9,677 bases of DNA from a virus (lineage: Duplodnaviria > Heunggongvirae > Uroviricota > Caudoviricetes), in IMG/VR virus record IMGVR_UViG_2657244940_000019; one strand, 5' to 3'. The notes under the pieces were generated by a model that saw only the letters and a list, made by a program, of their open reading frames with translations, made no database searches and was not told the origin of the DNA. This document shows positions 6,762-9,677 of this stretch, one piece after another. Every line of letters starts with the position of its first letter. Positions within the stretch are counted from its first letter, which is position 1. The position numbers were made by a program, and so were the translations under genes.

Positions 6762-7634
6762 TTACCAGCGACCGGACGCGCCGCCACCGCCAGAAGAACC
6801 GCCCCCGCCGCTAAATCCGCCGCCACTTGAGCCACCACCGGAACCGCTGTTGTCTGAATGATAACTTCTACCAGATGCTTTTTTCTGAAGTACACATAAA
6901 CAGGTAAAGACCATAATGGTGGTGAAAGTAAAAAAGAAGAAAAATACAGCAATGGAAAAAGTTTTATCGGAGAACAGGAATAAATCTAAAAGATAGATTG
7001 CTGAAATACAGACACTGCTTTTACATGCGCGACAAAAATTACTGCCTTGATGAAAAAACCAGAAAGGGAAGAACATCACTGCAAATACCCAAAAAATAGC
7101 AAAGTAGTAATGATCGCTGGAAGATGCTGATTCACTTTCTGAAGGATTAACCGAATATTGGTGTTGTGAAGTGAGTCGGTTATTCAAAGCGATTATAGCT
7201 AACTCTAATCCCTTAGCTAATTTTTGTTGTTTAAATGCGGGTATCATGTTGCTACGGATGATATCTCCAGCCAGAGCGTCGGTTACCTTTTCTTCCAGCC
7301 CATAACCTACCTGGATGCGGACAGTGCGATCCGACCAGGCAACAATGATCAGTATCCCATCATTACGTTTGGCATCTCCTAAACGCCAATTGTCAAAAAC
7401 CCTTGTAGCATATTGTTCAATGGAATCGTCTCCGGTGGACGGCACTACTAATACAGCGACCTGCGCCCGTGTTTTATGTGTAATATCCTGCAGTTGCTGT
7501 GTCAGTGATTGTTGTTCAGAAGTGCTTAACGTACCAGTAATATCGGTCACCTGTTGGCGCAGTTCCGGCACAGCAATTTGCTGGGCAAGCCCAGGAAGGC
7601 ACCACAAAGTGAATAGAATAAAGATTAAGCGCAT
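6762..7634 (-). CDS. ygcG: TPM-domain membrane protein, YgcG-like (290 aa from ATG 7634; an in-frame TTG at 7646 would give 294 aa)
   Basis: Signal peptide [22 protein letters not shown]-type domain (...[37 protein letters not shown]...), hydrophobic transmembrane segments, and Gly-rich C-terminus ...[25 protein letters not shown]. Position convergent with eno matches K-12 ygcG from memory; exact identity not verified. Confidence 0.8.
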
Positions 7635-7639
7635 TACGA

Positions 7640-8782
7640 TCACCAACGGTCGGATGAACCGCCGCCTCCTGAAGAACCGCCACCACCGCGGAAAGAATTT
7701 CTCGACGAAGAGCGAGAATGAGCATGAGCATTACGATTCCCCATTTTCCTGTTGCTTTTTTCTCCTGACCCCAGCTTAAGATTGCCAGTAAATTTGGCCA
7801 CAATGATCAGCAGAACGATGCCAGCAATGGTTATTGGGCCGATAAAATGATCAATTAACCCAATAATTGTTGAGATGAATGCAATATCTTTATTACTGGC
7901 GAACACCAGGCACCATCCCACAATAATTATCAGCATCACGACAAACAATGAATTTCGTCCTGATTCACGAAATTGCGGAGTCTTCTTTTGTTTTTTCACT
8001 TTAGCGTTTTTATTTTTTGGGGCCAGCATCATAGGAAATACGCGGCACATATTAAAAACTACTGCGAGACGCTGCCAGCAGATTGCTGCGAAAAATAAAC
8101 TAAAACAAACGACCGACACCCGCCGAATGATGACATCGTCCTGAAAGCAGAAAAACCAGACCGTAGGTGTAATCATTGATATCATCCATATGCCAGGTCC
8201 TGGACGGCTGGTAAATCGCCAGAGGACAATGATGGCAACGATCATCAGCACTGTCCAGGCAAGGCATGGCAGCGAAAGTTGCGGATTAGCAAACAGATGA
8301 TTGGCTAAAGCATCCAAAGGGCTAAGGTTCGCTTTGATATGGGTAAACTGTGCGATGCTTTCAATTCCGCCCGTTAATCCAGCAAAGAGATTGTTTTTTT
8401 CGAATTCTGGCTGCATATGGTAACGAACAATTTGCGCAGCTTGTTCCGGCGGCAACATCTGTTCCAGTCCATGTCCAATCTTCATTGACGCCAGCCCTTC
8501 CGGCCAAACGACGAGAATTAAGATACCTTCGCCATATCGCTTCTCTCCAACGGGTTTCCAGTGATATACCCCGTATCTCTGCGAGGCTGCAAGTTTAATG
8601 TTTTTGCCCCCTGTTGTCGGCGTAACCAACACGGCCACCTGGAAGTGGTTTTGCTGCTCGAGAGTCTGTAAAGCACTTTGTTCTTCTGTCGTTAATGTCC
8701 CGGTTAAGTCAGTCACTGAAGGCAATCGTTCAGCGAATACCTGAAAACCGCATAGCATCAGAAGTAAGAGAAAAATACGCAT
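7640..8782 (-). CDS. TPM-domain paralog with expanded polytopic membrane region (380 aa)
   Basis: Signal peptide [20 protein letters not shown]-type core (...[25 protein letters not shown]...), at least four hydrophobic helices separated by a Lys-rich loop ([23 protein letters not shown]), and tail ...[16 protein letters not shown]. Ribosome-binding site AAGGA before ATG 8782; its stop lies 5 nt before the ygcG start. Confidence 0.78.
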
Positions 8783-8796
8783 ATCAATTCCTTTTG

Positions 8797-9443
8797 TTAC
8801 CAGCGCCCGGAAGCGCCACCGCCACCAGATGAACCGCCACCACCGCTAAAATTGTCATTGTCGAATGAAGAGGATGACGATGATGAATAGTGGGAGGAAG
8901 AATTGCTTCTTGTATGGCGTGATGGCTGGTTGGCATCACGCATCGAATCCCGAACCTTTTTGCCGAAGGGGGTAAAAGCGATGGCAACTGCCAGAAACGG
9001 TGTGGCGAAGCAGAGTAATGTTGTGAGTACTCCCCAGCTTCCGCTGAAACCTGCTATAGGTAAAACAAAGGCCAGTACAATGGCTGCGAAGCAAATTACT
9101 CCCAACGTTTTGATATATCCTCTGGCAGAAATAAACGTCAGTATTATCGCCCAGACTAATAAAGCCCACCAACCGCTAAAGGGCAAAGGGTGATCGGTCG
9201 GTGTTATCGTTGCTGAATTATTCCCCGTCAGGCGACTTTCAATATCGTTGATCCCCTTTTGTAAACCACCAGCCAGGTCGCCTTTTTTAAATGCCGGAAT
9301 AATACTGTTGCGAATAATTTTCCCGGACTGTGCATCCGTAATAATACCTTCCAGCCCGTAACCGATTTCAATACGCACGGTATGATCCTGCCAGGCGACT
9401 AACAGTAGAACGCCATCATCACGGTCTTTATCACCCGGTTTCC
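8797..9443 (-). pseudogene. Third TPM-domain paralog, 5'-truncated by IS1 (about 80 N-terminal codons missing, including the signal peptide)
   Basis: The frame is open from the IS1 junction (9443/9444): ...KPGDKDRDDGVLLLVAWQDHTVRIEIGYGLEGIITDAQSGKIIRNSIIPAFKKGDLAGG... aligns with YgcG residues about 88 onward; then membrane helices, a Ser-rich stretch and tail ...[17 protein letters not shown]. The first possible start inside the native part is GTG at 9378. Confidence 0.75.
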
Positions 9444-9677
9444 GGTAATGACTCCAACTTATTGATAGTGTTTTATGTTCAGATAATGCCCGATGACTTT
9501 GTCATGCAGCTCCACCGATTTTGAGAACGACAGCGACTTCCGTCCCAGCCGTGCCAGGTGCTGCCTCAGATTCAGGTTATGCCGCTCAATTCGCTGCGTA
9601 TATCGCTTGCTGATTACGTGCAGCTTTCCCTTCAGGCGGGATTCATACAGCGGCCAGCCATCCGTCATCCATATCAC
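9444..9677 (-). mobile_element. IS1 insertion sequence, 3' portion in inverted orientation (rest of element lies right of the window)
   Basis: 9444-9466 GGTAATGACTCCAACTTATTGAT is the reverse complement of the IS1 terminus seen at 290-312; the following sequence is the reverse complement of window 79-312. Confidence 0.93.
9459..9677 (-). CDS. insB: IS1 transposase InsB, C-terminal fragment (5' end outside window)
   Basis: Minus-strand translation ...[35 protein letters not shown]...HYLNIKHYQ, identical to the left copy; stop at 9461-9459. Confidence 0.9.

Follow-up and report, generated by a model that had tools for sequence, protein, structure and literature searches.

The window, by which we mean the whole 9,677-nucleotide stretch of DNA analysed here, carries three genes for TPM-domain proteins, and a preliminary description had proposed that the middle one differs from its neighbours by a much larger membrane domain with an internal Lys-rich loop, suggesting functional divergence among the paralogs. 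The question raised by this locus is what kind of protein the middle gene encodes, and whether its enlarged membrane part and basic loop point to a role of their own. The window corresponds to an Escherichia-type chromosome segment. At its left end lies an IS1 element (1-313), followed by a fragment of a Rac/Qin-like prophage immunity region (313-1974) and, on the plus strand, by the genes mazE-mazF-mazG-pyrG-eno. After eno, the three TPM-domain genes (A, B and C) are found on the minus strand, and an inverted IS1 copy follows. Paralog A, the downstream gene, is YgcG (290 aa; 6762..7634, minus strand); its ATG lies 5 nt past the stop codon of B, and this ATG at 7634, not the TTG at 7646, is the start codon, in agreement with RefSeq. 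Paralog B, the middle gene, was called as an open reading frame of 380 aa plus stop (7640..8782, minus strand), and its product differs from E. coli WP_001217980.1 only by the in-frame loss of 4 aa and by a single T-to-M substitution. The reading frame of B is unbroken, is preceded by a good Shine-Dalgarno sequence and shows tight coupling to ygcG. The upstream gene, C (8797..9442, minus strand), is truncated at its 5' end, with about 81 codons gone, and its frame stays open as far as the IS1 end (9443..9677, minus strand, the inverted copy). This IS1 end stands where the start of C, and lemA with its upstream region, would otherwise lie. This decapitation of the operon by IS1 had gone unmentioned in the preliminary description. 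Since the same IS1/C junction, together with an identical B protein, also occurs on other public contigs (17 contigs for the exact B protein), the junction is a lineage trait and an assembly error is excluded. In its IS1 load and its rearrangements the window resembles Shigella.

In intact loci lemA lies directly upstream of the TPM genes, whereas in the window it is absent and IS1 stands in its place. Intact E. coli strains (e.g. GPEC1186 and HS13-1) show the order queE, lemA-C-B-A, eno, with proteins of 297 aa (C), 382-384 aa (B) and 290 aa (A). The E. albertii operon is lemA-C-B, A being absent, and that of Klebsiella is lemA-C-B' at the syntenic locus (queE, lemA-TPM-B' ... eno). Placement of lemA directly upstream is thus seen in E. 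coli, E. albertii, another Escherichia species and Klebsiella, and in the last three of these the B-type membrane domain is encoded at the same operon position. K-12 has kept only A (ygcG) at this locus, without lemA, C and B. The N-terminus of E. coli LemA contains a lipobox-like motif (FNLSGC). When the locus was scanned for consensus promoters, fewer sites were found than in shuffled sequence, and none of them lay upstream of B.

B begins with a signal peptide and a TPM domain; five hydrophobic helices follow, with the Lys-rich loop among them, and a basic linker and a Gly-rich C-terminus complete the chain. The signal peptide (residues 1-17; 8732..8782, minus strand) is of the Sec type as read from the sequence and has 81% identity to that of the Klebsiella orthologs; we assume that signal peptidase I would cut B after VFA. 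Classification of B as a lipoprotein was considered and rejected, as LMLC has Leu at position -1 and, judged from sequence, misfits a lipobox. The TPM domain (residues 23-145; 8348..8716, minus strand) was recognised by Pfam PF04536 (TPM_phosphatase) with an E-value of 5e-17 and a score of 62.5 bits, the cut-off being 22.1. In the AlphaFold model this part (pLDDT 65-86) forms the TPM alpha-beta-alpha sandwich with a Foldseek probability of 1.0, matching the solved structures 5anp, 2kw7, 7tbr, 3ptj and 8c7i (E 3.6e-8 to 1e-2). The best match was BA41 (5anp; E 3.6e-8, TM-score 0.75 normalised to the target), and the other solved TPM structures matched by the model were PG0361, Rhom172_1776, TLP18.3 and Psb32.

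Past the TPM domain, a juxtamembrane helix (residues 155-165; 8288..8320, this and the following features all on the minus strand), conserved in Klebsiella as EALADHLLA, leads to TM1 (residues 169-190; 8213..8278), which is strongly hydrophobic and contains the invariant motifs LPC and RF. TM2 (residues 197-213; 8144..8194) is short and of marginal hydrophobicity, and a DDVIIRR turn (residues 215-221; 8120..8140), in which D216-V-I-I219 is invariant, Klebsiella included, joins it to TM3 (residues 222-238; 8069..8119), which is short and hydrophobic and whose AlphaFold helix runs to residue 248. The Lys-rich loop (residues 249-276; 7955..8038) is followed by TM4 (residues 277-296; 7895..7954), with the highest hydrophobicity of all segments, and by TM5 (residues 300-333; 7784..7885), a long helix with a hydrophobic core at 313-331. 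The chain ends with a basic His/Ser/Arg-rich linker (residues 334-363; 7694..7783), which is disordered and predicted to be cytoplasmic, and with the Gly-rich C-terminal motif common to the family (residues 364-380; 7643..7693). On a Hessa-type insertion scale, 169-187, 278-296 and 313-331 came out as strong segments and the pair 198-212 / 222-236 as short and marginal. AlphaFold placed helices at 167-190, 196-212, 217-248, 276-295 and 300-331, and two independent runs, one for B and one for a Klebsiella ortholog, both gave five helices and a disordered loop. Tertiary confidence was poor (mean pLDDT 58 for B and 43 for the Klebsiella ortholog; pTM 0.36 and 0.23, respectively), and because of this the models of the membrane domain were used for secondary structure only. 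Judged by hydropathy, insertion scale and AlphaFold helices, the hydrophobic stretches do look membrane-spanning. The preliminary description had counted at least four helices after the TPM core, and every segment that it quoted could be located (helices at 174-188, 222-236, 279-295 and 306-329, the basic loop at 254-276, the His/Ser/Arg-rich linker at 330-363 and the Gly-rich tail at 364-380), but it had missed a fifth helix at 197-213.

The membrane region of B spans about 163 aa, about 2.7 times the family norm: among 63 YgcG-type proteins whose genes neighbour lemA in other proteobacteria, the span is 44-86 aa with a median of 60 aa. Instead of the compact YgcG-type region with two or three detected hydrophobic segments in about 45-86 aa, B has five helices. 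Both A and C have about three hydrophobic segments inside about 75 aa, and the earlier statement that the neighbouring paralogs have a shorter membrane region is borne out. Smith-Waterman comparisons against shuffled sequences detected no homology among the membrane regions of A, B and C (z from -0.6 to below 1.3) and gave no support for an internal duplication within B (z = 1.2). A Pfam search with the membrane domain of B returned nothing at E <= 1, and in the Foldseek search of the B model against the PDB only the TPM part was matched, the membrane domain having no match.

With regard to topology, the TPM domain of B should be periplasmic because it follows a Sec-type signal peptide, and the Lys-rich loop and the tail are predicted to be cytoplasmic. 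As TM2 and TM3 are paired, the loop would be cytoplasmic whether the pair spans the membrane or re-enters it, and the same holds for the linker and the tail. These two segments (15-17 residues, marginal) may in fact form a re-entrant or interfacial hairpin, which would alter the helix count and leave the side of the loop the same. Lys and Arg residues number 20 in the three proposed cytoplasmic segments and 3 in the two short periplasmic turns, and the helix count is odd in all three paralogs. In other members of the family, the linker past the last helix is rich in Gly and Trp and carries hardly any charge (median K+R = 1), so that for the family as a whole it is helix parity only that points to a cytoplasmic tail.

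The TPM domain of B has also diverged. In local alignments it scored 197 and 217 against those of the other two paralogs, compared with 381 for the A-C pair. All 13 B-type sequences (13/13) carry substitutions (E63K, D85E, D95E/K, R99S/A, E101K, Y104H/P and D112P) at positions where 79-100% of the other family members share the same residue. Six or seven family-conserved polar residues are thereby gone, and B lacks the polar set conserved in its subfamily (E63, D85, D95, R99, E101, Y104 and D112 in B numbering), while the structural glycines and hydrophobic residues of the domain are retained. As these residues are conserved in its own subfamily and missing from B, catalytic activity of B appears doubtful. 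Together with the Klebsiella orthologs that have no TPM core (see below), the polar substitutions suggest that the TPM domain of B has lost or changed the role of the conserved polar cluster. The four-residue deletion in the window copy corresponds to 12 nt, in frame, between TTA repeats (approximately 8669..8671, minus strand, coordinates from codon 38); it removes LNQQ from the first TPM helix and was found in none of the other alleles examined.

Full-length homologs of B were obtained only from Escherichia, namely E. coli, E. albertii (75-88% identity) and one further lineage, and the remaining homology matches cover the TPM domain only, at an identity of at most 37%. With the membrane domain alone, an exhaustive phmmer search of 1.84 billion representative proteins gave 11 matches and a profile search of 5.8 billion proteins gave 37, and neither returned anything beyond Escherichia- and Klebsiella-type sequences and fragments. 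The Klebsiella orthologs (e.g. from K. spallanzanii; 265-288 aa; P0025, P0029-31, P0128, P0134 and P0135) are like B in their signal peptide, juxtamembrane helix, TM1-TM3 with (D/E)DVII, basic Lys-rich loop (longer, 41 aa), two further helices and Gly tail, but their TPM core is deleted, leaving a remnant such as ISDLTSTLAAAEQ. Between the two genera, TM4-TM5 show 14-20% identity and are unalignable at the sequence level, and the Gly tail is 88% identical. The tail is almost invariant over 45 family members, G366-G369, G372 and G374 being fully invariant in these 45 sequences; B retains this Gly-rich motif and ends in SSDRW where the family has ASGRW. Elsewhere in the family, a Burkholderia protein (P0036, 419 aa) has an enlarged membrane region and P0024 has an A-type TPM domain fused to a different membrane domain. 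As these members have independently enlarged or swapped their membrane regions, plasticity of the membrane domain is a trait of the family.

Selection on the different parts of B was estimated by pairwise Nei-Gojobori dN/dS among E. coli alleles, E. albertii and the other Escherichia lineage. For the whole gene the ratio was 0.21-0.35 in seven of the eight pairs and 0.64 in the closest, low-divergence pair (window versus O157). By region, it was 0.10-0.29 for the TPM domain, 0.11-0.25 in six of the eight pairs for the juxtamembrane helix with TM1-3 (0.5-0.64 with the O157 allele), 0.16-0.42 for TM4-5, 0.31-0.46 for the tail and 0.26-1.05, mostly about 0.5, for the Lys-rich loop, which is the least constrained part of the protein. 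By these ratios, B is under purifying selection. Its functional core probably comprises the juxtamembrane helix, TM1-TM3 and the Gly tail, with the TPM domain outside it.

The Lys-rich loop itself, whose stretch quoted in the preliminary description corresponds to residues 254-276, is indeed present between the helices: 7 of the 23 residues of that stretch are Lys, against 3.4% in the remaining protein (P = 7e-6, and P = 0.003 after correction over all protein segments). The length of the loop varies between 28 and 41 aa, and all 17 homologs have a net loop charge between +5 and +9. Identity between Escherichia and Klebsiella is 16%, and K256, K258 and K261 are invariant from Escherichia through Klebsiella, which hints at a role past bulk charge. 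The loop is predicted to be disordered in both AlphaFold models (pLDDT 36-45 in B). At the DNA level it is 43% A with runs of A6, A5 and A6; the frameshift of at least one widespread truncated allele (P0016, 158 member sequences) lies inside these runs and that of another (P0017, 172 members) just past the loop. On this evidence, the loop is a low-complexity, indel-prone segment in which the charge appears to be selected and the sequence not. The concern that the extra region might be a poorly conserved low-complexity insertion is thus justified for the loop, whose length and sequence vary with the charge kept, but does not extend to the entire membrane domain. It could still be argued that the loop is a specific motif, be it a clamp for cardiolipin or phosphatidylglycerol, a docking site for nucleic acid or a partner, or a protease-sensitive regulatory segment. 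The conservation of charge in every homolog despite full sequence turnover, the three invariant lysines and a charge exceeding that of most family members past the last helix would agree with this. Such a motif is, however, hard to reconcile with the weak constraint, the variable length and low identity to Klebsiella, the predicted disorder and the slippage-prone A runs, and we hold it to be quite improbable. We therefore keep to the interpretation that the loop most likely serves as a flexible, positive cytoplasmic spacer whose charge would orient the flanking helices and could rest against anionic lipid head groups.

The Klebsiella orthologs are unbroken in several diverged lineages, and as two diverged Klebsiella copies gave a dN/dS of 0.33, purifying selection still acts on the form without a TPM core. 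These intact orthologs suggest that the B-type membrane module, comprising the juxtamembrane helix, TM1-TM3 with DDVII, the basic loop, TM4-TM5 and the Gly tail, might be an autonomous unit of Escherichia and Klebsiella and the membrane-embedded working part of a LemA/TPM envelope module, to which the TPM domain would be an optional periplasmic accessory; we consider this distinctly unlikely. Another proposal would be that the five helices form a small channel, pore or transporter, with the periplasmic TPM domain as its accessory or regulator, by analogy with MOLO-1, a TPM protein that modulates an ion channel (as cited in PMC13456599). Conserved charged or polar residues do occur beside or inside the helices (D215/D216, R220/R221 and D314/H315), and the membrane module persists in Klebsiella without the TPM core. 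On the other hand, the domain resembles no Pfam family and no solved membrane protein, TM4-TM5 are unconserved in sequence between the genera, AlphaFold gave no confident fold and the gene is often lost, for which reasons a transport function seems very improbable.

E. coli YgcG (b2778) and the YgcG-family proteins encoded next to lemA have the same signal peptide, periplasmic TPM domain (PF04536) and C-terminal hydrophobic region, that is, the YgcG-type layout, and also the near-invariant C-terminal motif; YgcG further shares with B the operon and the locus between queE and eno. Besides the size and helix number of its membrane region, B differs from the YgcG family by its internal Lys-rich, predicted cytoplasmic loop, by the loss of conserved polar TPM residues and by a membrane domain confined to Escherichia and Klebsiella. 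RefSeq names some B alleles 'YgcG family protein'. In NCBIfam, B had no match at E <= 0.01 and YgcG only a sub-threshold match to Psb32, and the collection seems to hold no model for the YgcG family. The anti-phage defence models of PADLOC matched none of A, B, C, LemA and the Klebsiella ortholog. B is an architectural variant inside the known YgcG family and does not represent a new kind of system. Its divergence from A and C in structure and sequence is well supported, and the three may plausibly have diverged in function too, as proposed at the outset.

Beyond the YgcG family, B has the TPM alpha-beta-alpha fold in common with AtTLP18.3, Psb32, MOLO-1, AscF/AscG, BA41/BA42, Rv2345 and B. 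subtilis YdjH. AtTLP18.3 and Psb32 function in photosystem II repair, MOLO-1 is an auxiliary subunit of an acetylcholine receptor and AscF/AscG belong to the mycobacterial CIII-CIV supercomplex, while phosphatase or nucleotidase activity, or metal binding, is on record for some TPM proteins. Unlike B, the characterised TPM proteins have one or few anchoring helices at most and are devoid of the Gly-rich C-terminal motif. They are membrane-associated, and most help to assemble membrane complexes or serve them as accessory factors (PMC13456599; PMC11237479); TPM domains have been proposed to be chaperone-like or assembly factors at membranes (PMC11237479). The literature on LemA, YgcG and the O157 locus tags contains no functional characterisation and offers indirect hints only. 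A sigma-S ChIP peak lies in the K-12 queE-ygcG intergenic region and ygcG is listed as envelope-stress-related (PMC4447067), the same residue of a YgcG-family protein was mutated in two Cupriavidus adaptive-evolution studies, and TPM and lemA genes were induced in a Flavobacterium sppA mutant.

B is an accessory gene that is often lost or broken in nature. Of 5426 complete E. coli genomes, 1115 carry it and about 80% do not, and a stretch spanning 80% or more of the three TPM genes occurs in 332 complete E. coli genomes. The annotation of Nissle-type, M1/5 and XH992 strains lists C as a truncated pseudogene, and that of O157:H7 as a shortened gene. This raises the question of whether B in the window strain is a relic without function that is turning into a pseudogene, or a dispensable gene that is drifting under weak selection, in which case its membrane domain and loop would have no role. 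The loss of lemA, its upstream region and part of C to IS1, the 12-nt deletion that no other allele examined shares, the absence of B from most genomes (K-12 keeps ygcG only), the decay of C in several strains, the many members of the truncated B alleles P0016 and P0017 and a dN/dS of 0.2-0.35, fairly relaxed for a bacterial gene, are all in keeping with such a fate. Yet the reading frame of B is intact, with its Shine-Dalgarno sequence and its coupling to ygcG preserved, the exact protein recurs on 17 public contigs, the cross-species dN/dS of the TPM and TM regions is well under 1, and the Klebsiella orthologs remain unbroken in diverged lineages. We regard a gene without function as rather unlikely. 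It should nevertheless be kept in mind that, given the deletion, the missing upstream part and the lack of a promoter-like site upstream of B, the copy in the window may be silent or decaying.

The account that we prefer, and towards which we lean moderately as a whole, is that B belongs to the YgcG branch of TPM-family proteins and resides in the inner membrane; we are more confident of its architecture and less so of its role. Its gene is part of the lemA-TPM operon found between queE and eno in some Escherichia and Klebsiella, and its signal peptide would export the diverged TPM domain into the periplasm. The chain would then enter the membrane via TM1 and the marginal hairpin TM2-DDVIIRR-TM3, bringing the Lys-rich loop to the cytoplasm, after which TM4 and TM5 would cross out and back so that the basic linker and the Gly-rich C-terminus end in the cytoplasm. 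Presumably B, the lipoprotein LemA and the remaining TPM paralogs are subunits of one module for envelope or stationary-phase stress; that they form a complex is suggested by the operon structure. In the window this module is broken, having lost lemA, the sequence upstream of it and the start of C. As to its origin, we infer as the simplest scenario that a three-helix YgcG-type protein gained a two-helix hairpin (TM4-TM5) in its cytoplasmic linker, whereby the former basic linker past TM3 would have become the Lys-rich loop. Gain of a hairpin keeps the number of helices odd, so that both basic segments would stay cytoplasmic; the search for internal duplication described above gave this origin no sequence support.

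For annotation, B is best treated as an accessory, often inactivated gene of the E. coli/Shigella type in which the A tracts of the Lys-rich loop coincide with frameshifted alleles, and the practical weight of this is modest. For the family, B shows that the membrane part is fast-evolving and exchangeable while the Gly-rich C-terminus is nearly invariant, and that the TPM domain can degrade or vanish while the membrane part and the tail persist. This directs experiments to the membrane domain and the tail over the presumed 'phosphatase' domain, with the TPM-less Klebsiella ortholog as the best lead. If the membrane module were indeed autonomous, it could offer a first experimental handle on the lemA-YgcG operons, which are widespread in Proteobacteria and beyond, and on their invariant Gly-rich C-terminus.

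The operon in which YgcG-type proteins are commonly encoded has the order lemA, a YgcG-type TPM gene of 280–310 aa with a Gly-rich tail, and a short TPM gene of 165–250 aa without this tail, as seen in the comparison loci L014–L093. The tail itself is a 17-residue C-terminal motif that stays almost invariant across YgcG-type proteins, from those of Enterobacteriaceae through Burkholderia and Leptospira (alignment A2 and the comparison loci). In contrast to this common layout, the Escherichia locus is atypical in having three tail-bearing paralogs. E. coli LemA (L001, 9017–9619) carries a lipobox-like LSGC within its N-terminus (MFRIFIAFIFIFNLSGCGYN), and is therefore, as judged from its sequence, probably a periplasmic lipoprotein rather than a helix-anchored protein.

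The syntenic Klebsiella orthologs of the middle paralog, B (L004, 6001–6858, and L005, 5379–6191), are devoid of the TPM core and retain the signal peptide, the membrane domain, the basic loop and the Gly-rich tail; the dN/dS between these two copies was 0.33. The synonymous divergence between the window's B and the E. albertii allele P0008 (L010) is mosaic, with a dS of 1.39 in the TPM part (window 8348–8716, minus strand) versus only 0.2–0.36 elsewhere in the gene, a pattern suggesting that old TPM allele classes have recombined with one another. The 301-aa protein P0024 combines a signal peptide and TPM domain of the A (YgcG-like) type with a different membrane domain, suggesting that membrane regions have been swapped among the paralogs in a cassette-like manner.

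The window's B has also lost LNQQ from its first TPM helix through a 12-nt in-frame deletion between TTA repeats at codon 38 (window position ~8669–8671). This deletion was seen in no other allele examined, and a protein identical to the window's B, including the deletion, is present on 17 public contigs. The lysines of the basic loop (7955–8038, minus strand) are encoded by runs of six, five and six adenines. The frameshifts of two truncated public B alleles, P0016 (275 aa, 158 members) and P0017 (285 aa, 172 members), fall within or just past this tract, suggesting that it is a slippage hotspot.

The 9.1-kb segment is flanked by two inverted IS1 copies (1–313 and 9443–9677) that have the same ends pointing inward and share 235 identical bp. 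This arrangement resembles a composite transposon; it may also be a mere outcome of IS1-mediated rearrangement, as in Shigella. Next to the first copy, a Rac/Qin-like prophage fragment (313–2004) takes the place of relA, the gene found upstream of mazE in E. coli. This fragment encodes a LexA-family repressor and a Cro/CI regulator, and also includes a truncated YdaT-family gene. Since the breakpoint lies ~30 bp upstream of mazE, the native upstream region of mazEF has probably been altered in the window.

At the other end, IS1 interrupts the upstream TPM paralog C (8797–9442, minus strand), from which ~81 codons are gone, and lemA is missing from the window; the same IS1/C junction recurs on other public contigs (L095). 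In O157:H7 (L006), M1/5 (L007), XH992 (L008) and a Nissle-type strain (L002), C is shortened to ~224 aa, without membrane region or tail, and is separated from B by ~230 bp of non-coding DNA preceding the latter; three of these four strains have C annotated as a pseudogene. Decay of the lemA/TPM locus takes different routes in different lineages.
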